Sequence record: SRR20825006_493
DNA length: 43,474 bases
Reading direction: 5' to 3' (one strand)
Positions 18,148 to 42,335 of this stretch are shown here, one piece after another (the first letter of the stretch is position 1; each line of letters starts with the position of its first letter). The notes below the pieces were generated by a model. The model saw nothing but the letters and a program-made list of their open reading frames with translations. It searched no databases and was not told where the DNA came from. Made by a program: the position numbers and the translations under genes.

Positions 18148-18159
18148 TCAGAATTTACA

Positions 18160-20953: not shown

Positions 20954-20973
20954 CCTATCTATAAAATTAAAGA

Positions 20974-21004: not shown

Positions 21005-21028
21005 AACTTCCATTACTAAAACTAAACC

Positions 21029-22525: not shown

Positions 22526-22560
22526 AACGGAGAACTATTAGGTTCTCCGTTTTATTTTTC
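22526..22560 (+). terminator. Intrinsic terminator ending the susCDE-amylase unit
   Basis: AACGGAGAAC / GTTCTCCGTT stem with a 6-nt loop, followed by TTATTTTT. Confidence 0.85.
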
Positions 22561-22783: not shown

Positions 22784-25700
22784 ATGAAGAACAATTTAAT
22801 CAAAGGCTTAGCCTTGGTTGGAGCATTTCTGTGTTTCAGCATGGCTAAAGCCCAGACTGTGAGTGGAACAGTCTCTGACGCTACTGGTCCTCTCCCAGGG
22901 GCAAACGTTCTAGTAAAAGGAACATCCAATGGAACACAAACAGATTTTGACGGAAATTACACTTTAGACAATGTGGATGCCACAGCTACTTTAGTGTTTA
23001 GCTATGTTGGATTTACATCTAAAGAAGTAGCTGTTAATGGGCAATCTACTATTAACGCAACACTTACTGAAGACGCGCAGGCTTTAGATGAAGTAGTAGT
23101 TATTGGATACGGTACTACTACTAAAAAAGATGCAACAGGAGCAGTTGCGGTAGTTAATTCTGAAGATTTTAACCAAGGGGTTATTGCCTCTCCAGAGCAA
23201 CTTATTCAAGGTAAAACCGCTGGGGTTCAAATTACTCAAACAAGTGGGGAGCCTGGTGCTGGGGTTCAAGTTAGAATTAGAGGTACGGCCTCTGTTCGTT
23301 CTAACAACAACCCTCTATTTGTTGTTGATGGAGTACCGCTTGCAGGAGGAAATACTGCAGCAGACGGTGCAGATTTAGGAGCGGGAACTAGCTCTGCTAA
23401 AAACCCACTTAACTTCTTAAATCCTAATGACATTGAAAGCATGACCGTTTTAAAAGACGCTTCGGCAACTGCTATTTACGGTTCTCGTGCTGCAAATGGA
23501 GTAATTATTATTACTACTAAAACAGGAAAAGCAGGTCAAGGAGGGAAATTTGAATTCTCTTCAAACACCAGTGTTTCAGTAGCTGCAAAAAAATATGATT
23601 TACTTGACAGAGAACAATATTTAGGCGCTATTACCCAATATGGTGGTGACGCTAATTCATTAGATTTTGGTGCAGATACAGATTGGCAAGACTATTTATT
23701 AAGAACTGCCTTTTCAACAGATCAAAATATTGCTTACTCAAACAACTATGGCTCTGGATTTGTAAGAGCTTCTTTTAGTTATGGTGATCAAAATGGAATA
23801 ATTAAAAACTCCTCGCAGGAAAGAATTACTGGTAGGTTAAATTTATCTCAACGTTTTTTAGACGATAAATTGAAACTTGATTTTAATGGAACCATCTCAA
23901 GAATAAATGATGATGCTCCTATGATTACTAATACTGCTGGTTCCACTGGAGATTTATTAGGAGCCACTTATTTTGCTAATCCAACTTGGCCTACAGATCC
24001 TTCTTTTTCAACTGGTAGTGATTTAATTCCTTCTCAGGCCTTAAACTATTTTAAAGACCAGACCAATACAAACAGATATTTAGCAAATATTTCTGCAGAA
24101 TATGAAATTATTGATGGGTTAAAAGCAAAAGTAAACCTTGGATATGATGAATCTTCTGCTGATAAAAATCAAGCACTTTCTGGAAATATTTCTGGATTAA
24201 GTAATGGTGCTCCTGTTAACGGTAGAGGTTTTTTTGCTGAAAACTATAATAAAAACACTCTTTTAGATGCAACCTTGAATTATGTAACGGAATTTGAAAA
24301 TTCTAAACTTGAAGTATTAGTTGGATATTCCTTTCAGAGCTTTAAAGCCGCTGGTAAAACAATTCAAGGATTTGGATATTCTTCTACAAATATGGATGAA
24401 ATGTTTGATGAGCTAGAAATATCAAGAAATATAATAGAAAATTCTATTACAGGTTCATATCAACAGTATGGTTTTGATTCAGATGGATTATTTGTTAATA
24501 GACTATTTCCTGATGTCTCAAGTAACGAACAACTTACTCCTCCATCAAACGTGCCGTTGGCAGCTGTAACTGGCGACACATATAATAACACAGATGAATT
24601 ACAATCGTATTTTGGAAGACTTAATTATACACTATTCCAAAAATTCATTTTCACCTTCACTTTAAGAGCCGATGGTTCTTCAAGGTTTGGTCCAGATAAC
24701 AGCTATGGATACTTCCCTTCCGGTGCTTTTGCATGGAGACTAGATGAAGAAGATTTTATTGGAGAATCTTTTTCAACACTTAAACTTCGTCTAGGATACG
24801 GTATCACTGGTAATCAAGATGGCATAGGATATGGTAACTTTACATACAGACAACGTTTTGGAGGTATTGGTATAGGAAATGGTGGAGATGTAAACCCACC
24901 TACTCTAGGACTAGTTGCATTTCCTCAATCGGGTCTTAAGTGGGAAGAAACAGCGCAAGCTAATATAGGTTTTGATTTTGGATTTATGGATGAACGCCTA
25001 AATGGTAGTATTGATCTTTATCATAAAACCACAAACGATTTACTACTAAAACAAGAAGCAGCACAACCTTCTCCGCAACCTTTTTACTTTGATAATGTAG
25101 ATGCTGACGTTATTAATAAAGGAATTGAATTTGCTATTAATTACGATTTTATTCAAACCGATAACCTAAACTGGAATGTGGGCTTTAACATAGCTTATAA
25201 TGACAATATGGTGAAAAATTTTGATGGCCAAATTCAAACAGGAGCTATTAGCGGTAATGGACTAACTGGAGCATATGCTCAGTTATTAACCGGTGGTCAT
25301 CCTTTATTCTCCTACTATTTAAGAGAATTTGGAGGATATGATCAAAACGGAATTTCTATTTACCCAAATGGAGATATTCAAGAATTTGTAGGGAAAAGTG
25401 CTTTGCCAAAAGTAACTTCTGGTCTCTCTACCAGTTTATCATATAAGAATTGGGATTTCAATGCATTCTTTACGGGTCAGTTTGGTCAATATCTATATAA
25501 CAATAATGCCAATGCATTCTTTACTGCTGGTATTATTGGGGGTGGAAAAAATGTTACAGAAGATGTATTAACTAATGGAGAGTCTGCTGCAAATGCACCT
25601 GATGTTTCTACAAGATTTTTAGAAAAAGGAGATTTTGTTAGACTTCAAAATGCTTCTATTGGATACAGCTTCCCTATTAAAAAAGATTGGTTCCTTGATG

Positions 25701-25873
25701 CATTAAGATTTAACGTAACTGGACAAAATTTATTTGTAATTACAGATTACTCTGGCTTAGATCCAGAAGTAAATACGCCAAAGCCTTTAAACGACATTCC
25801 TTCTCTAGGAATAGACTACACAAGTTTTCCAAGGCCAAGAACGATTACGTTTGGTATTAATGCAACATTTTAA
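22784..25873 (+). CDS. susC: Second SusC/RagA TonB-dependent transporter
   Basis: Signal peptide; LDEVVVIGYG, NPNDIESMTVLKDASATAIYGSRAANGVIIITTK; C-terminal FPRPRTITFGINATF. Confidence 0.96.
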   Translation: MKNNLIKGLALVGAFLCFSMAKAQTVSGTVSDATGPLPGANVLVKGTSNGTQTDFDGNYTLDNVDATATLVFSYVGFTSKEVAVNGQSTINATLTEDAQALDEVVVIGYGTTTKKDATGAVAVVNSEDFNQGVIASPEQLIQGKTAGVQITQTSGEPGAGVQVRIRGTASVRSNNNPLFVVDGVPLAGGNTAADGADLGAGTSSAKNPLNFLNPNDIESMTVLKDASATAIYGSRAANGVIIITTKTGKAGQGGKFEFSSNTSVSVAAKKYDLLDREQYLGAITQYGGDANSLDFGADTDWQDYLLRTAFSTDQNIAYSNNYGSGFVRASFSYGDQNGIIKNSSQERITGRLNLSQRFLDDKLKLDFNGTISRINDDAPMITNTAGSTGDLLGATYFANPTWPTDPSFSTGSDLIPSQALNYFKDQTNTNRYLANISAEYEIIDGLKAKVNLGYDESSADKNQALSGNISGLSNGAPVNGRGFFAENYNKNTLLDATLNYVTEFENSKLEVLVGYSFQSFKAAGKTIQGFGYSSTNMDEMFDELEISRNIIENSITGSYQQYGFDSDGLFVNRLFPDVSSNEQLTPPSNVPLAAVTGDTYNNTDELQSYFGRLNYTLFQKFIFTFTLRADGSSRFGPDNSYGYFPSGAFAWRLDEEDFIGESFSTLKLRLGYGITGNQDGIGYGNFTYRQRFGGIGIGNGGDVNPPTLGLVAFPQSGLKWEETAQANIGFDFGFMDERLNGSIDLYHKTTNDLLLKQEAAQPSPQPFYFDNVDADVINKGIEFAINYDFIQTDNLNWNVGFNIAYNDNMVKNFDGQIQTGAISGNGLTGAYAQLLTGGHPLFSYYLREFGGYDQNGISIYPNGDIQEFVGKSALPKVTSGLSTSLSYKNWDFNAFFTGQFGQYLYNNNANAFFTAGIIGGGKNVTEDVLTNGESAANAPDVSTRFLEKGDFVRLQNASIGYSFPIKKDWFLDALRFNVTGQNLFVITDYSGLDPEVNTPKPLNDIPSLGIDYTSFPRPRTITFGINATF

Positions 25874-25884
25874 AAAATTGATTT

Positions 25885-27465
25885 ATGAAAACATATAAAA
25901 TATATAATCTATTAATAGCTGCTCTCCTCCTTGGGATAACTGGATGTACAGATCTGGAGATTGAAGAGACGGATTCTCGGTTTCCAAATTTATCTGGAGA
26001 ATTTACGGGAGTTGATGCAGCTGGAAGTTTGGAAAACTTGTATAACTCTGTAAGAAGTCAAGTTCAAACACAAGAAAACATGTATGGTATCACCGAAGTA
26101 TCATCAGATGAATTTTTGGTTCCTACAAGAGGAACAGATTGGGGAGATAATGGAGTATGGAGAACATTACATAGCCATACTTGGAGTACAACTCACAATC
26201 TTATCAAAAATACATGGAATGAATTAAATTCAAATGTATATAATGCATCTACTATTATTGATCCTTTAAGTGAACCTACACCTCAACAAGCAGCTGAAGC
26301 TAAATTTATTAGAGCTTATAGCATGTTTTGGTTAATCGACCTTTTTGGGCAAGTGCCTTTTAGAAGTCCTCAAGATGGTCCTGATGTAACTCCTTCAGTA
26401 ATGACAAGAGTAGAAGCTTTTGATTTTGCTGTTAAGGACTTAACGGAAGCTATCCCTGCTCTACCTAGCACTGGCCCTGGAGATGGTTTAGTAAAGGCAT
26501 CTAAAGCATCAGCTCGTTATTTACTTGCTAAACTAATGCTAAATAAACACATTTACACTGGAGCAGGTTCTCCAAATGCAGCTGATATGACACAAGTTGT
26601 TGATTTGGTAAACGCAATTCAAGGAGATGGTTTTGCACTTCAACAGGGATATTTTGAACTTTTCACAAGCGATACTGATAACGAAACAATATTTTTTACT
26701 ACTTCCGACATAGGGTCTCGTATTTGGAATGGATTACATTACAACCAAGGAGCTCCAGATAACACTGGTGGTGGATGGAATGGATTTACAACTCTTGCTG
26801 AATTTTACGATTTATTCGAAGGCGATCCTAATGTAAACACCCCTGGATCTGGACAAGAGGAACGAAGAGGTTTTGTCCCTACTGGAGGTGTAGCAGCAAC
26901 TGGAGATGATATAGATGCTGATGGAGATGGAATAAAAGATGGTTCTAATATTGGTTATGGTTTCCTTATCGGACAACAATTCGGTCCTAAAGGAGAACAG
27001 CTTAAAAACCGACAAGGGAACCCTCTTTCTTATACTAAAGACTTACCAGGACTTTTAGGTAACAATGAAGTAACTGGAATTAGAGTTCTTAAATACAGTC
27101 CAGAAAATGGTTCTTTTGCTAACCATATGGTGCTATTTAGATATGCCGATGCACATTTAATGAAGGCTGAAGCTATTATGCGTGGAGGTACTTCTTCTGG
27201 AGAAGATGCACTTACTTTAGTAAATGATTTAAGAACACTTAGAGGCGCAACCCCTTTTGGCTCATTAACAGAAGAAAACTTGTTGGATGAAAGAGGTAGA
27301 GAATTGTATGGCGAATATTGGAGAAGAAACGATTTAATTCGCTTCGGAAAATTTAATGACACATGGGAGTTTAAAGATAATACTGAAGCGTTTAGAGTAT
27401 TATTCCCTATTCCTGAAACTGCTATTATTACTAATCCTAACCTAACTCAAAACGAAGGTTACTAA
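25885..27465 (+). CDS. susD: Second SusD/RagB lipoprotein
   Basis: Lipobox ITGC; PTRGTDWGDNG, EAKFIRA, FRYADAHLMKAEA, LDERGRELYGEYWRRNDLIRFG, NPNLTQNEGY. Confidence 0.95.
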   Translation: MKTYKIYNLLIAALLLGITGCTDLEIEETDSRFPNLSGEFTGVDAAGSLENLYNSVRSQVQTQENMYGITEVSSDEFLVPTRGTDWGDNGVWRTLHSHTWSTTHNLIKNTWNELNSNVYNASTIIDPLSEPTPQQAAEAKFIRAYSMFWLIDLFGQVPFRSPQDGPDVTPSVMTRVEAFDFAVKDLTEAIPALPSTGPGDGLVKASKASARYLLAKLMLNKHIYTGAGSPNAADMTQVVDLVNAIQGDGFALQQGYFELFTSDTDNETIFFTTSDIGSRIWNGLHYNQGAPDNTGGGWNGFTTLAEFYDLFEGDPNVNTPGSGQEERRGFVPTGGVAATGDDIDADGDGIKDGSNIGYGFLIGQQFGPKGEQLKNRQGNPLSYTKDLPGLLGNNEVTGIRVLKYSPENGSFANHMVLFRYADAHLMKAEAIMRGGTSSGEDALTLVNDLRTLRGATPFGSLTEENLLDERGRELYGEYWRRNDLIRFGKFNDTWEFKDNTEAFRVLFPIPETAIITNPNLTQNEGY

Positions 27466-27494
27466 ATAGAGTTTTTAACTATTTTTGAACATGC

Positions 27495-27520
27495 AAAACG
27501 CCTCTTCATAGAGGCGTTTT
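27495..27520. terminator. Bidirectional intrinsic terminator between susD2 and the response regulator
   Basis: AAAACGCCTCT-TCAT-AGAGGCGTTTT perfect 11-bp stem between convergent genes. Confidence 0.88.
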
Positions 27521-28207
27521 CTATTCTGTTAACTTTAATAGAAATCCTTTATTATGGATATTTTCAATAGCTATTGTAGCATCTTTACTTAAATATTTTC
27601 GAAGATGAGAAATAAATACATTTAAACTCTTTCGGTTAAAATAATCATTTTCTCCCCAGATACTTGTTAGAATATCTTTATGCGGCGCTAATTCATTTTT
27701 ACGCCTCCATAAAAACAGTAACAATTCACTTTCCCTTGAGGTTAGTGAAATAATCTCTTCCTCAAATTTTAACTGCTGAAGCTTAGGATTAAAAATATAC
27801 CGCCCAATTTGGATTTCATTAAAATTTTCTTCATTACTAGTAACTTGCAACCTTGATAACAACGTCTGTATTCTAACTACCAATTCTTCTTCATCAATCG
27901 GTTTCTTTAAATAATCTACTGCTCCTAAAGAAAACCCTTTTAAAACATCAATTTTTAAAGAACGTGCTGTTAAAAATATAAAAGGAACAGATGGGTATAA
28001 ATCTCTAATTTTTTCTGCCAATGTAAATCCGTCCATTTCTGGCATCATTACATCTAAAATTAGTAAATCGAAATTCTCTTTTTCCAGAATTGCCAAAGCC
28101 TTGACTCCATTGGTAACCCAATGCAATTGAAAATTCTTCATTTTTAAATATTCACTCAGTAAATACCCAAGGGAATTATCATCTTCTACTAATAATATTT
28201 TATTCAT
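27521..28207 (-). CDS. OmpR/PhoB-family response regulator (RprY-like)
   Basis: KILLVEDD, LLILDVMMPEMDG, FLTA, DYLKKP receiver domain; winged helix LTSRESELL..IWG..SLNVFISHLRKYL..IHNKGF. Confidence 0.94.
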   Translation of the reverse strand: MNKILLVEDDNSLGYLLSEYLKMKNFQLHWVTNGVKALAILEKENFDLLILDVMMPEMDGFTLAEKIRDLYPSVPFIFLTARSLKIDVLKGFSLGAVDYLKKPIDEEELVVRIQTLLSRLQVTSNEENFNEIQIGRYIFNPKLQQLKFEEEIISLTSRESELLLFLWRRKNELAPHKDILTSIWGENDYFNRKSLNVFISHLRKYLSKDATIAIENIHNKGFLLKLTE

Positions 28208-28242
28208 TTCCTTTTTGTTTCATTTTAACACTTCTTAGGCTT

Positions 28243-29520
28243 TTACCGAGGTAATTGATGGGGTACTTTAATTGTAACTACAGTTCCTTCGTTAATTTTA
28301 CTTTTCAAAAACACCTTCCCTTTATGCAAGCGTATTACTTGCTTTACATAACTTAGTCCAAGACCGTAGCCTCGCACTTTATGGAGATCGCCAGAGATTA
28401 TTCTATGATACTTTTTAAAAACATTCTTCAATTCATTTTCTGCAATTCCAATTCCATTATCCTTCACTTCAACATACATTTGATTGCCCTTTGTAACCGC
28501 TGTTAATCTTATTACTGGTTTACCTTCAGAATATTTCTTGGCATTATCTAATAAATTATTAATGGCATTCTCTAAATGATTTGGTTCACACAAAATCCAA
28601 TACGCTCCATCTTGAAGTTCATATTCAAAATCTATATTTTCCAAATTGGATAATTTAGAAAAAGAAGTTGCCAAGGAAAGTAAATTAGGTCTAAAATCTG
28701 TTAATTGTAAATCCATCACACTTTTTCTACTCTCCAAACCTGCCAAGTCCAAAACCTTTTCAATTTGAACTTTCAATTTATTATTTTGCTCTCTAATAAT
28801 AGCTACAATTGGCTTTGTTTCGTCAGTAGCTTTTTCAGACAACAATTTGGTAGCAAGCCCTATTGAAAAAACAGGAGTTTTTAATTCGTGTGTAAGGTTA
28901 TTTATAAAATCATTGGTAGTAGTTATAACACTCCGCTGCCAATAAAGCGATCGTAACACCCATATTACAACGAGAATAATAGCTATTATAAAAATTAAAC
29001 TCGGAATAGTTAAGCCATTTAATTGTGAAAGAAAATAATTATTCAAATCTTCAAACTGAAGCTCTAAAATTAATCGTTCATTTATTTTTTCAGGTAAATA
29101 TCCACTAAGAACTATCGGAAATTTAAGCTGCTCTTCATCGGAAACTTTATAATTAGGAGATGTTAAATATACAGTGGAATCGTTTTTAAAAAGACGGTAA
29201 TTAAATTCAGATTTAATTCCACTTTGCATCAATCGGTCTACTAAAAAATCATTCAAAAAATAACGAGAAGCATCTTGAATGCTATCTACACTCATCTTAA
29301 AATAGGAACTGTCTTTGGTAATAGCCTGTTCCATTAAAAAAGTTAGTTCATTTTGGTGATTCAAATCTTGCTTAATAGCTTGTACCGCCTGCCCTGCTTT
29401 AGAATTAAATTGAACCTTTGCTAAATTCAATCCAACTTTTAAGTATTGATATTGAATAAAAGCCAACCCAATTACCGAAATAATGAAAATTATAATATAT
29501 CCTTTTTTGAAATTGAGCAT
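28243..29520 (-). CDS. Membrane sensor histidine kinase (2 TM, HisKA + HATPase)
   Basis: FINNLTHELKTP H-box, NLLDNAKKYS N-box, DNGIGI G1, GYGLGLSYV G2. Confidence 0.94.
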   Translation of the reverse strand: MLNFKKGYIIIFIISVIGLAFIQYQYLKVGLNLAKVQFNSKAGQAVQAIKQDLNHQNELTFLMEQAITKDSSYFKMSVDSIQDASRYFLNDFLVDRLMQSGIKSEFNYRLFKNDSTVYLTSPNYKVSDEEQLKFPIVLSGYLPEKINERLILELQFEDLNNYFLSQLNGLTIPSLIFIIAIILVVIWVLRSLYWQRSVITTTNDFINNLTHELKTPVFSIGLATKLLSEKATDETKPIVAIIREQNNKLKVQIEKVLDLAGLESRKSVMDLQLTDFRPNLLSLATSFSKLSNLENIDFEYELQDGAYWILCEPNHLENAINNLLDNAKKYSEGKPVIRLTAVTKGNQMYVEVKDNGIGIAENELKNVFKKYHRIISGDLHKVRGYGLGLSYVKQVIRLHKGKVFLKSKINEGTVVTIKVPHQLPR

Positions 29521-29570
29521 ACTTACTAACTTAACAATCTGCCACAGCAGAAATTTATAGGCATTATTAC

Positions 29571-29608
29571 CTCAGAAAGGGTTTAATACCTCAAGGCTTC
29601 CCTCGAAG
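29571..29608 (-). repeat. Dispersed REP/MITE-like repeat fragment
   Basis: Reverse complement CTTCGAGGGAAGCCTTGAGGTATTAAACCCTTTCTGAG aligns with 40012-40050 TTTCGACAAAAAGCGTCGAGGAACTAAACCCTCTGTGAG. Confidence 0.6.
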
Positions 29609-29707
29609 TTCTTGATTTAAACAAATCTAAAAAATAAATCGACTTATGGCCTCTCTCATTTTAAATATCACTTTATGAGAACTATAATTTATAAAAATCT
29701 GTAACTC

Positions 29708-29766
29708 ATTAAGCTATTATTAATCTAATTAACCTTTCATTAATCTTTTTCATTTATCATTAACCT
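29708..29766 (+). promoter_or_regulatory. Phased ATTAANCT direct repeats, candidate OmpR-family binding boxes
   Basis: Copies start at 29708, 29719, 29728, 29739 and 29759 (spacing 11/9/11/20), upstream of and divergent from the kinase gene. Confidence 0.55.
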
Positions 29767-29796
29767 CAACATATATAAAACCTTACTATTTTAGTA

Positions 29797-29870
29797 GTGT
29801 TCAAAATAGTTTAAATAATTCTTCAACAATTAACTATGAAAAAAGCTAGCTTTCAAGTTAGCTTTTTTTA
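29797..29870 (+). ncRNA. Candidate small RNA (or 11-aa micro-ORF transcript)
   Basis: TATTTTAG -7-like element at 29787-29794, about 45 nt of AT-rich body, then a terminator with no upstream plus-strand gene to terminate. Confidence 0.35.
29839..29869 (+). terminator. Orphan intrinsic terminator
   Basis: AAAAAAGCTAGCT-TTCA-AGTTAGCTTTTTT with one G-U pair and a T7 tail. Confidence 0.8.
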
Positions 29871-29991
29871 ATGTAAAACTTTCTCGGAGCTTGTCTAATC
29901 AAAGTTAGATGGACTAGTCAACGAGATAGTATAAAAAAGTTAGAACATTTCAATGCAAATTCTCTGGCAAAATCAGGACAGGCTTTGAAAT

Positions 29992-30015
29992 ATTTAAATC
30001 TCGATTATTGAGTAA
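29992..30015 (+). repeat. Dispersed repeat fragment shared with the window start
   Basis: ATTTAAATCTCGATTATTGAGTAA versus 6-29 ATTCAAATCTCGATTATCGAGTAA (22/24 identical; the 6-29 copy forms a CTCGA-TTA-TCGAG hairpin). Confidence 0.75.
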
Positions 30016-30086
30016 GGCAATAACTAAAAACAAATTAACTACCTTGGGATAAACCCACGAAGGATTTAAAAAACGACTATATAATT

Positions 30087-33383: not shown

Positions 33384-36300
33384 AAAAGATAATTTTTACA
33401 TACTGCATTTTTAGTTTATTTATTTCTTGTAACTCCAAGAATAAAAATAAAGAGCGTATTGAACCTGATAAAGAAACGCTGTTTACACTTGTATCTCATG
33501 AAGAAAGCGGTATTGATTTTATAAATGAAATTGAAAACCAGAAGGATTTTAACATCTTTAAATACCGAAACTTTTACAATGGCGGAGGTGTTGCCATTGG
33601 AGATATTAATAACGATAATCTCCCCGATATCTACTTAACAGCTAACATGGGGAAAAACAAACTTTTTCTTAATAAAGGAGATTTTAAATTTGAAGATATT
33701 ACAGACAAAGCAGGTGTAGGTGGTGATAAACCTTGGTCTACTGGAGTTACTATGGTGGATATAAATAGCGATGGATTATTGGATATTTATGTTGCAAATG
33801 CTGGAAACATGGAAGGAAACAACCATGATAATGACCTCTACATTAATAATGGCGACTTAACTTTTACTGAGAAAGCAAACGATTATAATTTAGCAAGAAG
33901 CGGCTTTACCACCCATGCTGCTTTTTTTGACTACGATAAAGATGGCGACCTTGATGCGTATATCTTAAATAATAGTAATATTCCAGTAAGTAGTCTCGGG
34001 TACGCTGCACAAAGAAAAGTAAGGGCTCAAGATTGGGAAGGAGTCCCTGATATTTTTAAAGGCGTTGGAGATATGCTTCTTAGAAATGACGACGGAAAAT
34101 TTGTAGATGTAAGTGAGGAAGCTGGTATTTATGGAAGTCTTATTGGTTTTGGTTTAGGTGTTATGGTTAGTGATATTAATCAAGATTCTTATCCTGATAT
34201 TTATGTCTCTAACGATTTTTATGAACGAGATTATCTATATATCAACAATCAAGATGGTACTTTTAGGGAAGAAATAAAAAACTGGACTTCTCATTTAAGT
34301 CTTTCTTCCATGGGAGTGGATATGTCGGATATTAATAACGACGGACTTGCAGATATTTTTATTACCGATATGCTCCCAGAAGGAGATGAGCGAACAAAAA
34401 CTGTAACCGAATTTGAGGGATATGATATTTTTAAACTGAAACAAAGTAAAGATTTCTCTCAACAATTCATGCAAAACACCCTACAGGTAAATAATGGAAA
34501 TGAAACTTTTTCCGAAACCGCTTATTTCAGTGGTATTGCAAAAACAGATTGGAGTTGGGGTGGTGTATTATTTGACATGGATAACGATGGATATCGAGAT
34601 ATTTATGTAGCAAACGGAATTAATCATGACTTAACAGATATCGATTTTGTAAACTTCTTTGCTAATGAAATCATCCAAAAAATGGCGTTAACTGGCAAAA
34701 AACAAGCTATCGATTCAATTATCGACAAAATGCCTGTTAAACCAGTACCCAATTATGCTTTTAAAAACAATCAAGATTTAACTTTTAAAGACGACACAAA
34801 AGAATGGGGACTCTACCGCCCGAGTATGTCAAACGGAGTGGCGTATGGAGATTTGGATAATGATGGAGATTTAGACCTCATTGTTAATAATGTAAATATG
34901 CAGGCTTTTGTATATAAAAACAACAGTGATAAACTCACAAACAACAACTTCATAAGACTCAAATTAGTTGGTGAGAGTCCGAATGTTTTTGCTATCGGAG
35001 CAACTGTAAAAATGTACATAAAAGGAAAAACACAACTTTATGAACAAATTCCTTACAGAGGTTTTCAATCTTCTATGGACTATATCATGACGATTGGAAT
35101 TGGAAATGCTGAAAAAATAGATTCTATAAGAGTTATATGGCCAAATAATACAACTAAGAAATTGGAGCTTGTAGATGCAAACCAAACACTTACTCTAAAA
35201 CAAGCAGAGGCAGTCGATATTTATAAAATTCCGAAGAAAAAAGAACTCAAAACTTTCTTTACAGAAATAGAAAATAATGTTGTTGAACCTCATAAAGAAA
35301 ATAATTTTGTAGACTTTGATTATGAAGGATTAATTTCTAAAATGACCTCACAAGAAGGCCCTGCTGTGGCAAGTGGCGATATAAATGGAGATGGTAATGA
35401 AGATTTGTATGTTGGTGGAGCAAAAAATCAATTAGGAAACTTATACCTCAATTTAGGAAACGGAAAACTTCGTAAAGCAGGACAAAAAGTATTTGAAGAG
35501 GATAGTTTTTTAGAAGATACCTATGCCTCTTTCTTTGATGTAGATGGAGATGGCGATCTTGATTTAATGATAGGATCTGGTGGAAATGAAGAAAGAGATG
35601 CTACTAATTACAAAGCACGACTGTATCTAAATGACGGAAAAGGTAAGTTTACAAAAGACAAAAATACACTCCCTTCTACTTTTCATAATATTTCTGTAAT
35701 TGCTCCCTACGATTTTGACAATGATAATGACATTGATGTATTTATTGGGTCTAGAAGTGTTCCAGGAACTTATGGCGTAAATCCGAAGCATTTATTTTTA
35801 GAAAATCAAGGAGATGGCACTTTTAAAGATGTAACAGAGAGTAAAGCATACGACCTAAAAGATGCAGGTATGATTACCAATGCTAAATGGGTTGATATTG
35901 ATGGAGATGCTATAAAAGATTTAATTCTAGTTGGCGATTGGTTAGCTCCAAAGATTTTGAAAAATTCTGGTCGAAGATTAACGCTAGAAAAATCTAATTT
36001 AGATAATTACAGCGGTTGGTGGAACACCATAGAAAATGTAGATCTTGATAAAGATGGCGACCAAGATTTAATCCTTGGAAATCAAGGATCCAATATTGCA
36101 TATAAAGCCACAAAAGATGCTCCAATGCGAATGTTTATAAACGATTACGACAATAATGGTACTATAGAGCAGATTGTAACACATTCTATTAATGGAAAAG
36201 ATATGCCTATTCATATGAAGAAAGAATTAACAGCACAATTATCATCATTAAAAAAGCAAAATCTAAAGGCTTCTGAGTATTCTAAAAAATCCATTCAAGA

Positions 36301-36724
36301 GTTATTTTCAAAAGAAATTTTTGATCGCTCCATTAAAAAAGAGGTAAATATTACAGAATCTGTTGTTGCTATAAATAATGGAAATGGAAACTTTACAGTT
36401 AAAAAACTTCCAAACCAAGTACAACTTTCTTGTGTTTGTGATATCAGTACTACAGATCTTAATGGGGATGGAAATCTAGACCTTATTATGGCGGGGAATA
36501 ATTATGAATTTAAACCTCAGTTTTCAAGGTTAGATGCCAATTATGGAAGTGTCCTTCTAGGCAATGGAAAAGGCGATTTTGAATGGCAAGATTATAATAA
36601 ATCTGGCTTTTTTGTAAAAGGAGAAGTAAAAAAAATAGAGCAATTTAAAGATGCTGCTGGTAATTCATTCCTTTTTGTTGCAATTAATAATGAACAACCC
36701 AAAATTTTCAAAATCAATGAATAG
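33380..36724 (+). CDS. FG-GAP/VCBS-repeat + ASPIC/UnbV-domain lipoprotein, paralog 2
   Basis: Lipobox FISC; same architecture (..AIGATV..RGFQSS..IGIG..IDSIRVIWPN); ATGA overlap with paralog 1. Confidence 0.9.
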   Translation: MKKIIFTYCIFSLFISCNSKNKNKERIEPDKETLFTLVSHEESGIDFINEIENQKDFNIFKYRNFYNGGGVAIGDINNDNLPDIYLTANMGKNKLFLNKGDFKFEDITDKAGVGGDKPWSTGVTMVDINSDGLLDIYVANAGNMEGNNHDNDLYINNGDLTFTEKANDYNLARSGFTTHAAFFDYDKDGDLDAYILNNSNIPVSSLGYAAQRKVRAQDWEGVPDIFKGVGDMLLRNDDGKFVDVSEEAGIYGSLIGFGLGVMVSDINQDSYPDIYVSNDFYERDYLYINNQDGTFREEIKNWTSHLSLSSMGVDMSDINNDGLADIFITDMLPEGDERTKTVTEFEGYDIFKLKQSKDFSQQFMQNTLQVNNGNETFSETAYFSGIAKTDWSWGGVLFDMDNDGYRDIYVANGINHDLTDIDFVNFFANEIIQKMALTGKKQAIDSIIDKMPVKPVPNYAFKNNQDLTFKDDTKEWGLYRPSMSNGVAYGDLDNDGDLDLIVNNVNMQAFVYKNNSDKLTNNNFIRLKLVGESPNVFAIGATVKMYIKGKTQLYEQIPYRGFQSSMDYIMTIGIGNAEKIDSIRVIWPNNTTKKLELVDANQTLTLKQAEAVDIYKIPKKKELKTFFTEIENNVVEPHKENNFVDFDYEGLISKMTSQEGPAVASGDINGDGNEDLYVGGAKNQLGNLYLNLGNGKLRKAGQKVFEEDSFLEDTYASFFDVDGDGDLDLMIGSGGNEERDATNYKARLYLNDGKGKFTKDKNTLPSTFHNISVIAPYDFDNDNDIDVFIGSRSVPGTYGVNPKHLFLENQGDGTFKDVTESKAYDLKDAGMITNAKWVDIDGDAIKDLILVGDWLAPKILKNSGRRLTLEKSNLDNYSGWWNTIENVDLDKDGDQDLILGNQGSNIAYKATKDAPMRMFINDYDNNGTIEQIVTHSINGKDMPIHMKKELTAQLSSLKKQNLKASEYSKKSIQELFSKEIFDRSIKKEVNITESVVAINNGNGNFTVKKLPNQVQLSCVCDISTTDLNGDGNLDLIMAGNNYEFKPQFSRLDANYGSVLLGNGKGDFEWQDYNKSGFFVKGEVKKIEQFKDAAGNSFLFVAINNEQPKIFKINE

Positions 36725-39700
36725 GTGCTATCTGTACATAGTAACGATTTTTATAATTGCTTCTTGTAAAAAAGAAGGCGAGTTGTTTATGAATCCTTCT
36801 GAAAAAGAAACGGGTATTAATTTTACAAATACACTCACCGAAACAAACGATTTAAACATCCTAGATTACCTATATTTTTATAACGGCGGTGGTGTTGCGG
36901 TTGGAGATATTAACAATGATAATTTACCCGATATTTTCTTCTCTGGAAACCAAGTAAAGAACAAACTTTATCTCAATAAAGGTAATTTAAAATTTAAAGA
37001 CATTTCGGTTGCTGCTGGTGTGGAAGGAAACAGCACGTGGAATACCGGAGCCGTTATGGGCGATGTTAATGGCGATGGTTTTTTAGACATTTATGTGTGT
37101 GCAGTAGTGGGAATTAATGGATTTAGAGGCTATAATGAACTGTACATAAATAATGGCGACACTACTTTTACTGAAAGTGCTAAAGAATATGGTTTAGACT
37201 TTGAATCTTATAGCTCCTCTGCAGCGTTTCTAGATTACGATTTGGATGGCGATTTAGATATTTATTTATTGAATCATGCTGTTCATACTCAAGAATCTTT
37301 TGGTAAAGCAGCGCTTAGAAATCAAAGAAATTATGAAACAGGCGATAAATTATTGAGAAACGACAACGGAAAATTTACCGATGTAAGTGAGCAAGCCAAT
37401 ATCTTTGGCGGTGTAAATGGATATGGATTAGGAATTGCTATCTCCGATTTTAATCAAGATGGCTATCCAGATATTTATGTTGGAAACGACTTTCATGAAG
37501 ACGACTATTATTATCTTAATAATGGTGATGGTACTTTTACTGAAAGCTTAAAAAAACATTTTGGGCATACAAGTCGGTTTTCTATGGGAAATGATGTTGC
37601 AGATATTAATCACGATGGTCTCCCAGATATTTTGTCTTTAGATATGCTCCCAGAAGATGAAGCTGTTTTAAAATCTTCAGCAGGGGATGAAAATGTGCAA
37701 ATGTTACAAATGCGTACCGAAAAACTAGGATACCATTATCAATATACTAGGAATATGCTTCAGTTAAATAATCAAGACGGAAATTATACTGAGACAGCTT
37801 TGATGAGCGGGATTGCGGCAACCGATTGGAGTTGGAGTGCCCTTTTTGCTGATTATAATGAGGATGGAGAGCAGGATCTTTTTATAGCTAACGGAATTCC
37901 AAAACGCCCTAACAACTTAGATTTTATAAAGTTTACCTCTAATGAACAGATTCGTAAAAAACTAGATAACACAAAACTTGTAGACCAAAAAGCATTGGAA
38001 TTAATGCCTTCTGGAGTCTACCATAATTATATTTTTGAAGGGAAAAAAGAAACTCAGTTTTCAGACCAATCTGGGAAATGGATTATAAAAGACAGCTTAA
38101 TTTCTGGCGCAACTGCCATGGCAGATTTTGATAATGATGGCGATATTGATTTAGTAACAAATAACATCAATCAACCAGCAACGCTTTATATCAATAAATC
38201 AACAAACAAAAGAAACTATTTAAAACTGAAGTTCAATTACACAAAACCAAATAGCCTTGCCATAGGAACCAAAGTTTTTGCCTACCAAAAAGGAGTTTTA
38301 CAATTTCGTGAATTATATACCGTTCGTGGATTTCAAGCTTCTTCGGAGCCTTTTATCCACTTCGGGTTTCCTACAAATTCTAAAATAGATTCGTTGGTTA
38401 TTGTATGGCCAGATAAAACATATCAAACCTTAAAAAATATTAATCCGAATCAAACAGTAACAATTTCAGCTGAAAAAAATAGAAATCAATTTGCCTACAA
38501 CTCTCTAAAGAACAAACAACAACCCCTTTTTACAAAAGTAGAAGGAAATTTAGGAATTAACTACAAGCACAAAGAAGATGATTATATAGATTTTCTAAGA
38601 CAAAAATTAATTCCTTATCAAATTTCCGATCGTGGACCTGCAACCGCAATTGGCGATTTAAATGGGGATGGGAAAGATGATATTTTTTTCGGAAGCTCAA
38701 AGTTTAAACGTTCACAAGTATATTTTCAAAATGATACTGGTTTTATAGAACAAACAGATAATTTTATAAAAAATGATTCTATTAACGAAACTGTGGTTGC
38801 CTTAATTTTAGATTTTAATAAGGATGGTAAGAATGATATTTTTACAGGCAATGCTGGCGGTGATTTCTACGGGGAATCTAAGCCCTTAAATGATGTGGTG
38901 TATTATAAAAAAGACAGTTTATTTATTAAAAGTATCCTCGAAAATGAGTTTGAAAACACCTCTGTAATTAAACCTTTTGATTTTGATACCGATGGAGATC
39001 TAGATGTTTTTGTAGGTAGTAATACTGTTTCTTACGACTTTGGAGCCATTCCAAACTCTTTTATTCTAAAAAATGAAAATGGGAAATTTGAGGCTCTTAA
39101 AAATTTAGAATTGCAAAAAGCAGGAATGGTTACCGATGCTATTTGGACGGACTTTACCAATGATGGCACAAAAGATTTAATTGTGGTAGGAGAATGGATG
39201 TCGCCAAAATTCTTCAGCAATCTAAATGGTAATTTTAAAGAAGTATTTCCTTCCGAAGAAAAACTAAACGGGCTTTGGAGAAGTATTACTGAATTTGATA
39301 TGGATGGTGATGGTGACAATGATTACCTATTAGGAAATTGGGGAACTAATTCTAAATTTAAGGCTTCCAAGGAATACCCAATGCGGATGTATTATGCCGA
39401 TTTTGATAACAACAAACGCACAGAAACAATTTTGGCGACCGAAAAAGATGGAGCTTACTATACCGTAGCAAATTTTGATGAACTTTCAGAACAATTAGTT
39501 TCTATAATGCGAAAAAAGTTTACTGACTATAAATCTTTTGCAGGAAAAAATATAGAAGAAGTTTTTGGTGAGAAATTACTTAACAATGCTACCCTCTTAG
39601 AAGTTCACACCTTGACATCTGGTTGGCTAGAGAATGAAAATGGAAAATTTAAATTTCATGCTTTCGAAAGTAAATTACAAACGGCTCCCATTACTAATTT

Positions 39701-39983
39701 TTTAAAACACGACTTTAATAATGACGGAAAAGAAGAAGTTTTAGCTGCTGGAAATTATTTTGGAGTAAAACCGTATCATGGAAAATTTGATGCTTTTCCT
39801 GGGGCACTCATAAGCAACAAAAAGAATATTCAGCTAACCTCAAATATTGGATTGGATTTATCAAACAAAGCTATTACACAGTTAAATACTATTAGAATTA
39901 ACAATCAAAATTACCTTTTGGTAACAGTAAATAATAACGGTGCAGAACTGTACCAAATCAAAAATCTCGGGGGAAATCCATGA
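36717..39983 (+). CDS. FG-GAP/VCBS-repeat + ASPIC/UnbV-domain lipoprotein, paralog 3
   Basis: Start at 36717 (MNRCYLYIVTIFIIASC lipoprotein signal; ORF track 36651) overlaps the paralog 2 stop by 8 nt; ..AIGTKV..RGFQAS..IHFGF..IDSLVIVWPD. Confidence 0.9.
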   Translation: MNRCYLYIVTIFIIASCKKEGELFMNPSEKETGINFTNTLTETNDLNILDYLYFYNGGGVAVGDINNDNLPDIFFSGNQVKNKLYLNKGNLKFKDISVAAGVEGNSTWNTGAVMGDVNGDGFLDIYVCAVVGINGFRGYNELYINNGDTTFTESAKEYGLDFESYSSSAAFLDYDLDGDLDIYLLNHAVHTQESFGKAALRNQRNYETGDKLLRNDNGKFTDVSEQANIFGGVNGYGLGIAISDFNQDGYPDIYVGNDFHEDDYYYLNNGDGTFTESLKKHFGHTSRFSMGNDVADINHDGLPDILSLDMLPEDEAVLKSSAGDENVQMLQMRTEKLGYHYQYTRNMLQLNNQDGNYTETALMSGIAATDWSWSALFADYNEDGEQDLFIANGIPKRPNNLDFIKFTSNEQIRKKLDNTKLVDQKALELMPSGVYHNYIFEGKKETQFSDQSGKWIIKDSLISGATAMADFDNDGDIDLVTNNINQPATLYINKSTNKRNYLKLKFNYTKPNSLAIGTKVFAYQKGVLQFRELYTVRGFQASSEPFIHFGFPTNSKIDSLVIVWPDKTYQTLKNINPNQTVTISAEKNRNQFAYNSLKNKQQPLFTKVEGNLGINYKHKEDDYIDFLRQKLIPYQISDRGPATAIGDLNGDGKDDIFFGSSKFKRSQVYFQNDTGFIEQTDNFIKNDSINETVVALILDFNKDGKNDIFTGNAGGDFYGESKPLNDVVYYKKDSLFIKSILENEFENTSVIKPFDFDTDGDLDVFVGSNTVSYDFGAIPNSFILKNENGKFEALKNLELQKAGMVTDAIWTDFTNDGTKDLIVVGEWMSPKFFSNLNGNFKEVFPSEEKLNGLWRSITEFDMDGDGDNDYLLGNWGTNSKFKASKEYPMRMYYADFDNNKRTETILATEKDGAYYTVANFDELSEQLVSIMRKKFTDYKSFAGKNIEEVFGEKLLNNATLLEVHTLTSGWLENENGKFKFHAFESKLQTAPITNFLKHDFNNDGKEEVLAAGNYFGVKPYHGKFDAFPGALISNKKNIQLTSNIGLDLSNKAITQLNTIRINNQNYLLVTVNNNGAELYQIKNLGGNP

Positions 39984-40050
39984 GGTTTTCAAACAAAATA
40001 ACCTTAACTCATTTCGACAAAAAGCGTCGAGGAACTAAACCCTCTGTGAG
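39966..40050 (+). repeat. Dispersed REP/MITE-like repeat, degenerate two-part copy
   Basis: CTCGGGGGAAATCCATGAGG resembles 30042-30063 CCTTGGGATAAACCCACGAAGG; second half matches the reverse complement of 29571-29608. Confidence 0.55.
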
Positions 40051-40069
40051 AAATTAAAAAACAATTAAA

Positions 40070-41431
40070 ATGAAACGTATTTCCCTCTTATTATTTAGCG
40101 CTTCCCTTTTATGCATTATTGCTTGCAATAAGGAAGAACAGCCTATTGAAGTAACTTCAGAAAACATGCATCGGGCAATTGATAAAGTTGTTGAAGTTAT
40201 GATTCATGATATTTTTTCGCCAGTGGTAGCGAGTAGGATTTTTGTATATCCAGATATTGCTGCTTATGAAATTATTGCAAAGAATGACCCAAATTACAAT
40301 TCGCTTGCAGGTACTATAAATGGATTAAAACCCATTCCAAATCCTATTGATACTGTAAATGTAAACTACAAGGTTTCTGCATTGATTGCTCATTTGGAAT
40401 TAAGTAAGAGTCTTATTTTTTCTGAAGATAGAATAACTGCTTATCAAGATAGCTTATACAATACTTGGAAAAAAACCAACGAAAAAGAGTTTGAAAAATC
40501 TAAAGAATATGCCATGCAAGTGGTAACACATATGAAAAAATGGATGGATACGGACAATTATAAACAAACCCGAACCATGCCAAAATTTACAGTAAACACA
40601 GACGATCCTTCTCGTTGGCAACCAACTCCTCCTGCATATATGGACGGAATTGAACCCCATTGGATGAAAATAAGAACCCTTGCAATAGACTCTGCTGCTC
40701 AATTTAAACCGATTCCACCTCCTGAGTTTTCAATGGAAGAAGATAGTCAGTTTTACAAAGAAACTATGGAAGTTTATAATGTGAGAAATAAAATGACTGA
40801 GGAAGGCGATGATTCTGAAGAAATTGCTATTGCTAAGTTTTGGGATTGTAACCCATATGTTTCTGTTACCAAAGGACATTTAATGTTTGCAACCAAAAAA
40901 ATTACTCCAGGCGCACATTGGATTGGTATTACTAAAATAGCCTGTAGGAAAACAAATACAGATTTTAATAAAACAGTTTTTGCTTATACTAAAACTGCCA
41001 TTTCTATATTTGATGGTTTTATAAGCTGTTGGGATGAAAAATACAGAAGCAACCTTATCCGTCCGGAAACTGTAATTAATCAATATATAGACGAGAATTG
41101 GAAGCCTGTTTTACAAACCCCTCCTTTCCCTGAATATACGAGTGGACATTCGGTAGTTTCTGGAGCTGCAGCAAAAACACTGACTTCTATTTTTGGAGAT
41201 GATTTTGCTTTTGACGACGATACTGAAACTCCATATGGAATTCCTGTTCGCTCCTTCTCTTCCTTTAACAATGCTTCTACTGAAGCTGCTTTAAGTAGAA
41301 TGTATGGTGGAATTCACTACCGTGCAGCTATAGATGTTGGTTTGAGTCAAGGTCGATCTTTGGGAGAGTATGTAATTAATAAATTATCGGTAATGACTAA
41401 TAAAGAAGTAGCAAGTACTTCCGTAAAGTAA
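40070..41431 (+). CDS. Vanadium-dependent haloperoxidase family lipoprotein (PAP2/haloperoxidase superfamily)
   Basis: Lipobox IIAC; vanadate-site motifs CWDEKYRSNLIRP, TPPFPEYTSGHS, SRMYGGIHY; also WQPTPP and FWDCNP. Confidence 0.88.
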   Translation: MKRISLLLFSASLLCIIACNKEEQPIEVTSENMHRAIDKVVEVMIHDIFSPVVASRIFVYPDIAAYEIIAKNDPNYNSLAGTINGLKPIPNPIDTVNVNYKVSALIAHLELSKSLIFSEDRITAYQDSLYNTWKKTNEKEFEKSKEYAMQVVTHMKKWMDTDNYKQTRTMPKFTVNTDDPSRWQPTPPAYMDGIEPHWMKIRTLAIDSAAQFKPIPPPEFSMEEDSQFYKETMEVYNVRNKMTEEGDDSEEIAIAKFWDCNPYVSVTKGHLMFATKKITPGAHWIGITKIACRKTNTDFNKTVFAYTKTAISIFDGFISCWDEKYRSNLIRPETVINQYIDENWKPVLQTPPFPEYTSGHSVVSGAAAKTLTSIFGDDFAFDDDTETPYGIPVRSFSSFNNASTEAALSRMYGGIHYRAAIDVGLSQGRSLGEYVINKLSVMTNKEVASTSVK

Positions 41432-41441
41432 TAAAAATCAA

Positions 41442-42335
41442 ATGAAAAAAATTATAAGCGTTTTAATCCTTATTGTTTTATGTATTCTTGGCTGGTATTT
41501 ATTCATTAAAAAAAGTGATTATATCTATAGATTTGAAACCAAAACTAGTCAGGCTACAGTGTTTTATAGTATCTCAAATTGGAAAAAAACTAACGATTCT
41601 ATTCACACAGAAACCATAGATAGCACCCTATATAAATCCATCACCCAAAAGCTAAATTATTTGGATAAAAACTATACATTATTTTGGGATATTAAAGCTG
41701 AAAATGATTCCGTTACAAAAGTAGCGCTTGGCATTAAAGGAGCTAAAAACAATGCCATTAATAGAATTACAGCGCCTTTTTTAAATACTGAATTTAAAAG
41801 TATGTCAAAGGATATTGCAATGAACTTTATCCGTAAATTAAAAATGAATCTATCTACTTTTAGAGTAAAAATTACAGGAAAAACAGATTCTCCAGCTAAA
41901 AAATGTGCTTGTGTAAATGCAAAAACAAAACTAGAAAACAAGGCTAAACACATGATGCGAAATTACAATTACATAGCCGATTTTGTTGATGAAAACAATT
42001 TGCAACCAGATGGCAGACCAATGGTGGTTATTAATAACTTTAATAAAGAGGAAAATACTATTGATATGGATTTTTGTTTCCCTGTAACAAGAATTGATAA
42101 ACTCCCTGAAAACCCTGATATTTTCTTTAGGGAATTAAAGGCTGTCCCATCTCTTAAGGCTGTTTTTAATGGGAATTATATGTATTCTCATCATGCTTGG
42201 TTTCAAATTTTTGATTATGCTGAAAATAATGCTATTGATTTAAAAAACAATATTATAGAGAAGTTTCATAACAACCCTAATTTTGGGGGAGATGCATTGC
42301 AATGGACCACAGAGGTATATATTCCAATTAAATAA
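41442..42335 (+). CDS. Membrane-anchored protein with a C-terminal GyrI-like small-molecule-binding domain
   Basis: N-terminal hydrophobic anchor; GRPMVV..MDFCFPV..LKAVFNGNYMYSHHAW..EKFHNNP..WTTEVYIPI; 10 nt after the haloperoxidase stop. Confidence 0.75.
   Translation: MKKIISVLILIVLCILGWYLFIKKSDYIYRFETKTSQATVFYSISNWKKTNDSIHTETIDSTLYKSITQKLNYLDKNYTLFWDIKAENDSVTKVALGIKGAKNNAINRITAPFLNTEFKSMSKDIAMNFIRKLKMNLSTFRVKITGKTDSPAKKCACVNAKTKLENKAKHMMRNYNYIADFVDENNLQPDGRPMVVINNFNKEENTIDMDFCFPVTRIDKLPENPDIFFRELKAVPSLKAVFNGNYMYSHHAWFQIFDYAENNAIDLKNNIIEKFHNNPNFGGDALQWTTEVYIPIK

Follow-up and report, generated by a model that had tools for sequence, protein, structure and literature searches.

The 43,474-nucleotide stretch of DNA from sequence record SRR20825006_493 (hereafter the window) carries, at positions 22784–42335, one copy of a conserved gene cassette. 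The cassette is composed of a SusC, a SusD, two or three CRTAC1-like double-propeller lipoproteins, a vanadium iodoperoxidase (VIPO) and a membrane-anchored GyrI-like protein. It is widespread in marine Bacteroidota and uncharacterised as a whole. We judge it somewhat better than an even chance that this cassette is an alternative or additional outer-membrane front end of a LacI-controlled regulon for small α-glucosides or α-glucan fragments, of the maltose, maltodextrin or trehalose type. An earlier note on this DNA, made from the letters alone, had described the genes as a glycosidase-free machine of their own; given their neighbours in other genomes, a variant front end of the α-glucoside regulon is the more fitting description. 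The same note knew of no functional description of the whole module, and our full-text literature searches also found none: no article was found that joins ASPIC, UnbV and SusD, UnbV and haloperoxidase, FG-GAP, SusD and polysaccharide utilization locus (PUL), or haloperoxidase, SusC and SusD.

The linkage of the cassette genes is far beyond chance. In a family sample of 151 genomes, 63 carry a VIPO homologue at a threshold of E ≤ 1e-40. We took the 30 best VIPO loci, from 30 genomes, with 1.5 kb on either side. In 27 of them, VIPO is immediately preceded by a C-terminus of the ASP3 type (the propeller protein adjoining VIPO) and immediately followed by a GyrI-like gene. One of the other three has an upstream gene only, resembling ASP1, and two have neither neighbour. 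In 20-kb contexts fetched from 20 genera, with VIPO identities of 41–71%, same-strand homologues of SusC2 and SusD2, the SusC and SusD proteins of the cassette, lie upstream in 13; besides these, one context has a SusD at the edge of the locus and in one genome the SusD2 orthologue is 21 kb distant. Two or more propeller genes occur in 17 of the 20 contexts, and a full-length GyrI-like gene in 14. When counted from SusD2, 27 of 31 orthologues (E ≤ 1e-60) are located 8–22 kb from VIPO on the same contig.

Across the phylum, a VIPO homologue (E ≤ 1e-60) was found in 53 of 301 sampled genomes. Of the 28 new loci from this sample, 18 show a propeller gene immediately upstream of VIPO and one shows it downstream; in the other nine, no propeller gene occurs within 1.5 kb. 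A GyrI-like gene after VIPO is confined to the five same-family loci among the 28. The proposal of the earlier note that these genes form one conserved module was open to contradiction by a survey of gene neighbourhoods across Bacteroidota. It came through that survey, as the linkage recurs in both the family and the phylum samples (27/30 and 18/28).

The neighbours of the cassette point to α-glucosides. The direct divergent neighbour of SusC2 in 10 of the 20 contexts encodes LacI and/or a β-phosphoglucomutase (β-PGM), followed by a member of glycoside hydrolase (GH) family 65 and sometimes by a GH13. This arm opposite SusC2 is the same catabolic arm that, in the window, faces SusC1, the transporter of the starch locus upstream of the cassette. 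Nine of the ten divergent contexts have the palindrome ACGAAACCGTTTTCGT, with TTAACAC in front of it, some 100 nt ahead of SusC2; it is perfect in five genomes and a close variant in four more, and G115 has a degenerate copy upstream of SusC2. The LacI-type operator of the window, ACTAAAACGTTTTCGT (15116–15131), is the same motif as this palindrome. It stands in the LacI–SusC1 spacer, outside the cassette, and no second such site occurs in the window with as many as three mismatches allowed. The comparison suggests that the cassette usually forms the outer-membrane arm of an α-glucoside regulon, with the glycosidases on the divergent arm.

The distance between GH65 and VIPO was determined in 47 genomes, chosen for a best full-length VIPO match of 59% identity or more; the fragmentary G083 was left out. 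The two genes are 14–38 kb apart in 23 of these genomes and 54 kb apart in one, and two genomes gave no GH65. G150 has its SusD2 orthologue 7 kb from GH65, while ASP1–3, VIPO and the GyrI-like gene are found 800 kb from there, next to galactose genes. A Na+/solute symporter gene is present in or beside the cassette in 9 of the 20 contexts. Other sugar-related neighbours are a PfkB kinase (L040 and L042), a GH100-like gene (L042) and, in one context, a sugar transporter of the major facilitator superfamily (MFS).

The earlier note had guessed at an α-glucoside-related substrate or co-regulation. Adjacency to LacI, β-PGM and GH65 and the operator found elsewhere favor this guess, whereas the cassette in the window has no operator. 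Likewise, its term "glycosidase-free" holds within 22784–42335, but not for the many genomes in which glycosidases occupy the divergent arm.

A search for starch-type SusD1 homologues (E ≤ 1e-20) in five genomes with the divergent LacI–SusC2 layout found none; in the control, G001, SusD1 was recovered with E = 0. G001 is the genome nearest to the window and served as the stand-in for its own assembly in our comparisons. In G138, G115 and G059, where the cassette does not flank the GH65 arm, a SusD1-type gene adjoins GH65 elsewhere, and the cassette of G059 has its own, weaker LacI homologue (34% identity). G107, in which β-PGM flanks SusC2, has no SusD1 homologue above 30% identity. The catabolic arm therefore pairs with either the classical SusCDE–amylase front end or this cassette, and both front ends stand in tandem in the window and in G115. 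The cassette is not fixed in the lineage: the same-genus genome G044 has GH65 and lacks VIPO and UnbV_ASPIC matches, and the cassette is therefore accessory.

SusC2 (22784–25873, plus strand) is a SusC/RagA-type TonB-dependent outer-membrane transporter with all the hallmarks of that group. It contains CarbopepD_reg_2, Plug (PF07715) and barrel (PF00593) domains, and scores 703 bits against TIGR04056 (cut-off 368) and 70.6 bits against the TIGR04057 signature (cut-off 46.2). In other genera the cassette is headed by SusC2 orthologues of 55–65% identity. SusD2 (25885–27465, plus strand) starts 12 nt past the SusC2 stop and belongs to the SusD/RagB lipoproteins (PF07980, 82.6 bits; PF14322; lipobox ITGC), among which it is a divergent relative of starch-type SusD. 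Its score of 135.9 bits against NF033071, the model of starch-binding SusD proper, is far under the cut-off of 725, so that SusD2 is only a distant relative of the starch-binding proteins. The nearest solved relatives are 3JYS (E 3e-28) and the Bacteroides thetaiotaomicron SusD, 3CK7 (E 1e-23). SusD1 has the same top two relatives, to which SusD2 matches much more weakly, and the two SusD proteins of the window are about 31% identical. As to the usual signs of a PUL, the adjacent susC/susD pair is present in the cassette, while co-localised carbohydrate-active enzymes (CAZymes) are absent within 22784–42335, with GH13, GH97 and GH65 genes directly upstream in the window.

The three propeller lipoproteins are encoded in a row on the plus strand. 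ASP1 (30087–33383, 1098 residues) is an optional paralogue with FG-GAP_3 and UnbV_ASPIC scores of 238 and 71 bits, the lipobox LFSC followed by NKEE, and 12 Dx[DN]x[DN]G loops. The core paralogues, likewise assigned with Pfam, are ASP2 (33380–36724, 1114 residues, lipobox FISC) and ASP3 (36717–39983, from an open reading frame (ORF) of 1110 codons, lipobox IASC followed by KKEGE), which adjoins VIPO. The start of ASP3 is most likely the ATG at 36717 (MNRCYLY...IASC), and not 36651, where the ORF opens. The scores over all three proteins are 221–238 bits for FG-GAP_3 (PF13517) and 70–71 bits for UnbV_ASPIC (PF07593), and each protein has 10–12 of the calcium loops. With an FG-GAP propeller followed by UnbV_ASPIC and a CRTAC1-like fold, they belong to the CRTAC1/ASPIC-UnbV family.

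The AlphaFold model of ASP3, built on a 47-sequence alignment, has a predicted local distance difference test (pLDDT) score of 89.4 and a predicted template modelling (TM) score of 0.89. Residues 21–587 of the model superpose on murine CRTAC1 (9ETN) with a Z score of 39.8 and a root-mean-square deviation of 2.3 Å over 456 residues (Foldseek E 3e-27), and residues ~600–1085 form a second propeller. The other fold matches are generic propellers: LGI1 (Z 29–31), aldos-2-ulose dehydratase (Z 26.7) and WD40 (Z 22–25). No CAZyme family of Pfam or NCBIfam matched the propellers, and GH74 gave a TM score below 0.3 with the whole 1088-residue ASP3 model as the query. A protein-atlas search with ASP3 returned VCBS/UnbV clusters only. 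We know of no biochemical activity of CRTAC1, so its likeness to ASP3 yields no function, and a search of the CRTAC1 literature gave no functional lead.

Besides the calcium loops, the invariant residues among the 47 sequences are few: R201, E261, Q342, N346, W371-S372-W373, H618, E691 and Q988. In a maximum-likelihood tree of the 47 propeller proteins, ASP1 (9 rows), ASP2 (13) and ASP3 (16) form position-specific clades, each with a Shimodaira–Hasegawa-like approximate likelihood ratio (SH-aLRT) of 100. ASP2 and ASP3 are always kept, and ASP1 is missing from six of the sampled cassettes. The identities across genera are 64–70% for ASP2, 61–68% for ASP3 and 65–71% for VIPO, as compared to 47–61% for SusD2. 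Given that ASP2 and ASP3 are conserved about as well as VIPO and better than SusD2, an enzyme or a tightly packed complex fits them better than an ordinary glycan-binding lipoprotein does. The UnbV_ASPIC family itself is common, occurring in 126 of the 151 family genomes with up to 15 matches per genome.

Three genera carry a second cassette type, with three propeller clades of its own in the same tree. In this type (L042, L046 and L047), a conserved ORF of ~190–200 residues, matching no Pfam family, lies between propeller genes 1 and 2. The second-type SusC of L047 (genome G049, 14783–17786) is divided between two ORFs of 535 and 470 residues; this split is a frameshift or a pseudogene in G049. 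In another context (L045, genome G002), genes for an ImuB-like Y-family polymerase and a DnaE2-like polymerase at 14539–18733 stand between the propellers and SusCD, which are ~10 kb apart.

VIPO (40070–41431, plus strand) is a lipoprotein of the PAP2 superfamily (lipobox IIAC followed by NKEE) and the orthologue of Zg-VIPO1 from Zobellia galactanivorans. A phmmer search matched residues 1–449 to the crystallised Zobellia enzyme (4CIT/4USZ) with E 1.2e-217 and 726.6 bits, and the next solved relatives have E values of 1e-4 or worse. The Zg-VIPO1 entry in the PDB was deposited as a vanadium-dependent haloperoxidase. The enzyme is reportedly an iodide-specific peroxidase, a result attributed to Fournier in 2014. 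In VIPO, the residues that we take to be the vanadate-binding ones of the family are K324, R331, S358-G359-H360, R410 and H416. Among 21 orthologues (41–71% identity), K324, R331, S358, H360, R410 and H416 are invariant and G359 is present in at least 90%. Near the vanadate site, W321 and F353 are likewise invariant, and at least 90% of the orthologues keep C320 and D322. The "haloperoxidase" of the earlier note can thus be narrowed to a full-length orthologue of the iodide-specific Zg-VIPO1. VIPO is accordingly predicted to be an iodide-oxidising vanadium peroxidase.

The last gene of the cassette (41442–42335, plus strand) encodes the GyrI-like protein (PF06445, 30.5 bits; cut-off 26). It comprises an N-terminal hydrophobic helix (residues 1–26), a small β-rich domain and a C-terminal GyrI-like ligand-binding domain, and has no lipobox. 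In its model (pLDDT 88.5), the C-terminal half matches CTR107/Rho-tag, CtaZ, the EcmrR C-domain and SbmC with TM scores of 0.72–0.82 (Foldseek E down to 3e-9). The values of 0.8 to CTR107 and 0.72 to SbmC place the domain among the GyrI-like folds. Searched with a profile of this protein, the family yielded 40 strong matches, almost all of them immediately downstream of VIPO; one, in G047, follows a propeller gene with no VIPO. A paralogue of ~340–370 residues, unlinked to the cassette, occurs once in most family genomes (profile E 1e-16 to 1e-32), for example at G136:C35:6751-7518 and G012:C34:24659-25429.

Longer VIPO homologues join the cassette proteins in single chains. In 33 such proteins, analysed with Pfam scans and BLAST against the window proteins, six cluster representatives of 1147–1648 residues consist of a whole double propeller with a C-terminal VIPO (45–48% identity), and one of them stands for 13 sequences. 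Eight further representatives, of ~950 residues, combine one propeller, UnbV_ASPIC and a VIPO-like domain (33–36% identity). The domain order of these fusions, propeller then VIPO, is the gene order of ASP3 and VIPO, and this agreement is the strongest evidence for physical joint action. VIPO is also fused to glycosidases: one lipoprotein combines VIPO (52% identity) with a trehalase (PF01204, 424 bits), one protein contains a VIPO part and a GH97, and another contains VIPO and a GH20 chitobiase. The trehalase and GH97 fusions would again tie VIPO to glucose-releasing enzymes that act on α-glucosides. There are also six tandem double-VIPO proteins; tandem VIPO-like lipoproteins (P0003–P0010, ~860 residues, 33–37% identity per domain) are a recurrent architecture.

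The copy in the window departs from the usual arrangement. A hairpin with an 11-bp stem (22526–22551) containing five G-C pairs, followed by a T-run, forms an intrinsic terminator at 22526–22560 (plus strand), at the end of the starch susCDE–amylase operon and upstream of SusC2; the terminator that the earlier note had placed between the starch genes and the second susCD pair is therefore real. Another terminator hairpin, also with an 11-bp stem, lies at 27495–27520 between the convergent SusD2 and response-regulator genes. Given this second strong terminator, the cassette forms two transcription units in this genome, SusC2–SusD2 and ASP1 through the GyrI-like gene. Between them, on the minus strand, lie genes for an OmpR-type response regulator (27521–28207) and a histidine kinase (28243–29520), both assigned with Pfam; the hydropathy profile of the kinase has two hydrophobic segments and an outer loop of ~135 residues. 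This two-component pair does not belong to the system: none of the 20 other genera has such a pair between SusD2 and the propeller genes, and it is a lineage-specific insertion that splits the cassette.

The kinase/regulator operon and the ASP1 unit diverge from a common spacer of 566 bp, and it is a reasonable guess from this layout that the inserted two-component system now controls the unit from ASP1 to the GyrI-like gene. Within the spacer, six ATTAA-type repeats with a phase of ~10–11 nt occupy 29706–29766 (TCATTAAGC, TATTAATC, AATTAACC, TCATTAATC, CATTTATC and CATTAACC). They could be sites for the inserted OmpR-type regulator, or a chance product of an AT-rich region. The same spacer holds a 23-nt imperfect inverted repeat at 29830–29877, with flanking A- and T-runs, which is terminator-like in both directions and adjoins no ORF of 100 residues or more. 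A sigma-70-type promoter scan was uninformative (74 sites versus 84 expected), and the Bacteroidota-type TAnnTTTG box is absent upstream of SusC1, SusC2, ASP1 and VIPO in the window. The box is present upstream of SusC2 in five of the six other genera checked.

All nine ORFs of 22784–42335, including the two-component pair, are open over the coordinates that we took over from the earlier note, and ORF checks, Pfam, NCBIfam and a lipobox scan recovered every gene and domain that it had named. Its description of the exported set as lipoproteins plus one membrane-anchored protein is also accurate: lipoboxes are present in ASP1–3 and VIPO, while the GyrI-like protein has the N-terminal helix only. 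In agreement with its account, Pfam and NCBIfam find no glycosidase, lyase, sulfatase or peptidase family in the nine proteins.

If the cassette is a front end of the α-glucoside regulon, SusC2 and SusD2 would import small α-glucosides or α-glucan fragments. ASP2 and ASP3, joined by ASP1 in some genomes, would serve with SusCD as calcium-dependent capture or scaffold subunits at the surface, occupying the place of SusE/F and SusG. VIPO, docked on ASP3, would use ambient or locally made H2O2 to oxidise iodide to hypoiodous acid (HOI) at the uptake site, and this oxidation may serve as a peroxide shield or for iodine acquisition. The GyrI-like protein would lie at the periplasmic face of the inner membrane and bind a small, hydrophobic ligand there. 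In the window, the cassette stands in tandem behind a complete classical starch locus, its own operator lost and its genes split into two units.

Several points weigh against this explanation. The fold searches with the propellers returned no enzyme- or lectin-specific structural match, so that we adopt "capture or scaffold" by default and not as a result, and the conservation of the propellers is unusually high for surface glycan-binding proteins. The explanation also leaves the need for iodide oxidation in sugar uptake unaccounted for. In the window, a search allowing as many as three mismatches detected no LacI operator ahead of SusC2 or ASP1; together with the strong terminator after the starch operon, this weakens the case for co-regulation in this genome. 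In the distance survey, GH65 and VIPO are more than 80 kb apart on one contig in 6 of the 47 genomes, and 15 of the 47, with the two genes on different contigs, are uninformative. A xylose-isomerase-like gene and an FGGY kinase lie near the cassette in 3 of the 20 contexts, and a galactokinase in one. Finally, the tally of SusD2 orthologues in 31 of 151 genomes is a lower bound, as nine candidates were scored per genome and the nearest genome, G001, was itself missed.

The alternatives differ mainly in what they take the propellers and VIPO to do. The propellers may be calcium-dependent surface sugar oxidases, or have some other H2O2-linked activity, and feed H2O2 to VIPO in a sugar-fuelled machine for iodide oxidation and iodine uptake or in a non-hydrolytic oxidative step. 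The whole propeller–VIPO fusions, in the order oxidase then peroxidase, the fusions of VIPO to the glucose-releasing trehalase and GH97, the enzyme-like conservation of ASP2 and ASP3, and the 10–12 calcium loops per propeller protein are all in line with this idea, as are the requirements for iodine uptake in the Flavobacteriaceae strain C-21. Uptake in that strain needs glucose, O2 and Ca2+, and an H2O2-generating system can substitute; a membrane glucose oxidase acting with a haloperoxidase has been proposed, and the genome of an iodine-accumulating strain has at least five VIPO homologues (PMC5064120). However, no redox-cofactor motif was found in the propellers, and the 47 sequences share a single invariant His (H618), a single invariant Met and, apart from that of the lipid anchor, no invariant Cys. 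Their structural matches include nothing oxidase-like (CRTAC1 at Z 39.8, the rest generic propellers at Z 22–31), and many propeller cassettes lack VIPO (PF07593 in 126 of 151 genomes, VIPO in 63). We regard a sugar-oxidase role as quite unlikely. It is a long shot, too, that the double propellers are a new class of calcium-dependent surface enzymes in complex with VIPO, which would, for example, use O2 to oxidise imported or released glucose or α-glucosides and so supply VIPO with H2O2 for HOI formation. If this were true, the so far missing genes behind the iodine accumulation of marine Flavobacteriaceae, which depends on glucose, O2 and Ca2+, would be those of the cassette, and the CRTAC1/ASPIC-UnbV family would gain its first biochemical function.

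VIPO belongs to the PAP2 superfamily, whose vanadate and phosphate sites are made of the same K, R, S-G-H, R and H residues. It is conceivable, though unlikely, that the VIPO-type protein acts in vivo as a phosphatase that frees phosphorylated sugars or glucans of phosphate esters for glycosidases and transporters; these shared residues would permit it, and the trehalase, GH97 and GH20 fusions are easier to rationalise for such an enzyme than for a halogenating one. The deposition of the orthologue Zg-VIPO1 as a vanadium-dependent haloperoxidase argues otherwise, as does the full-length match to it (E 1e-217), which extends to the surroundings of the vanadate site (W321 and F353 invariant; C320 and D322 at least 90% conserved). 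The activity of that orthologue is, in turn, the starting point for an explanation in which the main job is iodine or peroxide defence, by scavenging algal or photochemical H2O2 or by biocidal HOI at the surface, with the sugar genes as regulatory or positional company. A report on Zobellia describes the iodoperoxidase vIPO3 as up-regulated on fresh brown alga alongside oxidative-stress genes (PMC9296495), which would suit defence, and the ASP–VIPO–GyrI unit stands away from SusCD and GH65 in some genomes, such as G150 and G140. Defence alone is nevertheless distinctly unlikely in our view, considering that one orthologous SusC/SusD clade accompanies the module in most genomes, that the promoter–operator layout puts the whole cassette under a sugar repressor, and that a further starch-type SusD is missing from genomes with the LacI–SusC2 layout. 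The local picture, in which two terminators and the inverted two-component pair divide the units and neither unit has a LacI operator, might even suggest that SusC2/SusD2 and ASP–VIPO–GyrI have nothing to do with each other and are neighbours behind the starch locus by chance. The comparison already contradicts such incidental adjacency, as the same order runs uninterrupted in most of the 20 genera and across the phylum, and we consider it highly improbable.

The window is Flavobacteriaceae DNA of low GC content (~34%). Upstream of the cassette, 3121–22468 is a textbook starch locus. Its minus-strand arm encodes two GH13, a GH97, a GH65, a β-phosphoglucomutase of the haloacid dehalogenase (HAD) type, an MFS transporter and LacI, and its plus-strand arm encodes SusC1, SusD1, a SusE/F protein and a lipoprotein GH13. 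The GH97–GH65 spacer contains three or four copies of a ~27-nt unit at 9201–9363 (GACAAGCTCAGTTTGAAAAGCTC-like). Directly after the cassette, a PIN-domain gene (PF13470, 66.7 bits) lies at 42673–43095 on the minus strand; it is also found in the nearest genome (L001) and is probably a toxin–antitoxin remnant.

The cassette brings three long-standing puzzles together in one operon, namely the physiological role of VIPO, the function of the CRTAC1/ASPIC-UnbV family and the existence of SusCD loci without CAZymes. Members of the CRTAC1/ASPIC-UnbV family abound in marine Bacteroidota, and the family is conserved as far as vertebrates. Moreover, the cassette occupies the place that SusE/F and the surface amylase have in starch loci, behind a sugar-repressor operator, and the coupling between propeller and iodoperoxidase is directly testable. 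The main text of Kappelmann et al. describes "trehalose-like α-1,1-glucan" PULs 103 and 116 in North Sea Flavobacteriaceae, with SusC/D-like proteins in bloom metaproteomes (PMC6298971). If the SusC and SusD proteins of the cassette are these "trehalose-type" proteins, the system would be active in the sea. That main text gives neither the gene content of PULs 103 and 116 nor any mention of ASPIC, FG-GAP or haloperoxidase.

VIPO shares with Zg-VIPO1 its length, the lipoprotein-type N-terminus and the positions of the K/R/S-G-H/R/H site. The Zobellia enzyme was studied as an isolated protein, whereas VIPO is seen here in a SusCD/propeller gene context; the literature retrieved with Zobellia locus tags and enzyme names consisted of enzymology citations only, with this context unmentioned. 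The GyrI-like protein has the fold of CTR107, CtaZ, the EcmrR C-domain and SbmC in its C-terminal half, but differs from them in its membrane anchor, its extra β-rich domain and the position of its gene in an envelope operon. The known GyrI-like members are cytoplasmic, and either free-standing or fused to DNA-binding domains. The N-terminal FG-GAP propeller and UnbV/ASPIC domain of ASP3 superpose on those of murine CRTAC1 (9ETN), while the bacterial proteins, unlike vertebrate CRTAC1, are lipoproteins with a second propeller. As a whole, the cassette resembles the classical Sus systems of the flavobacterial α-1,4-glucan PULs (PMC6298971) in that SusC/SusD diverge from LacI, β-PGM and GH65, with or without GH13. 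In place of SusE/F and the surface amylase, however, it has two or three 120-kDa propellers, an iodoperoxidase and a GyrI-like protein.

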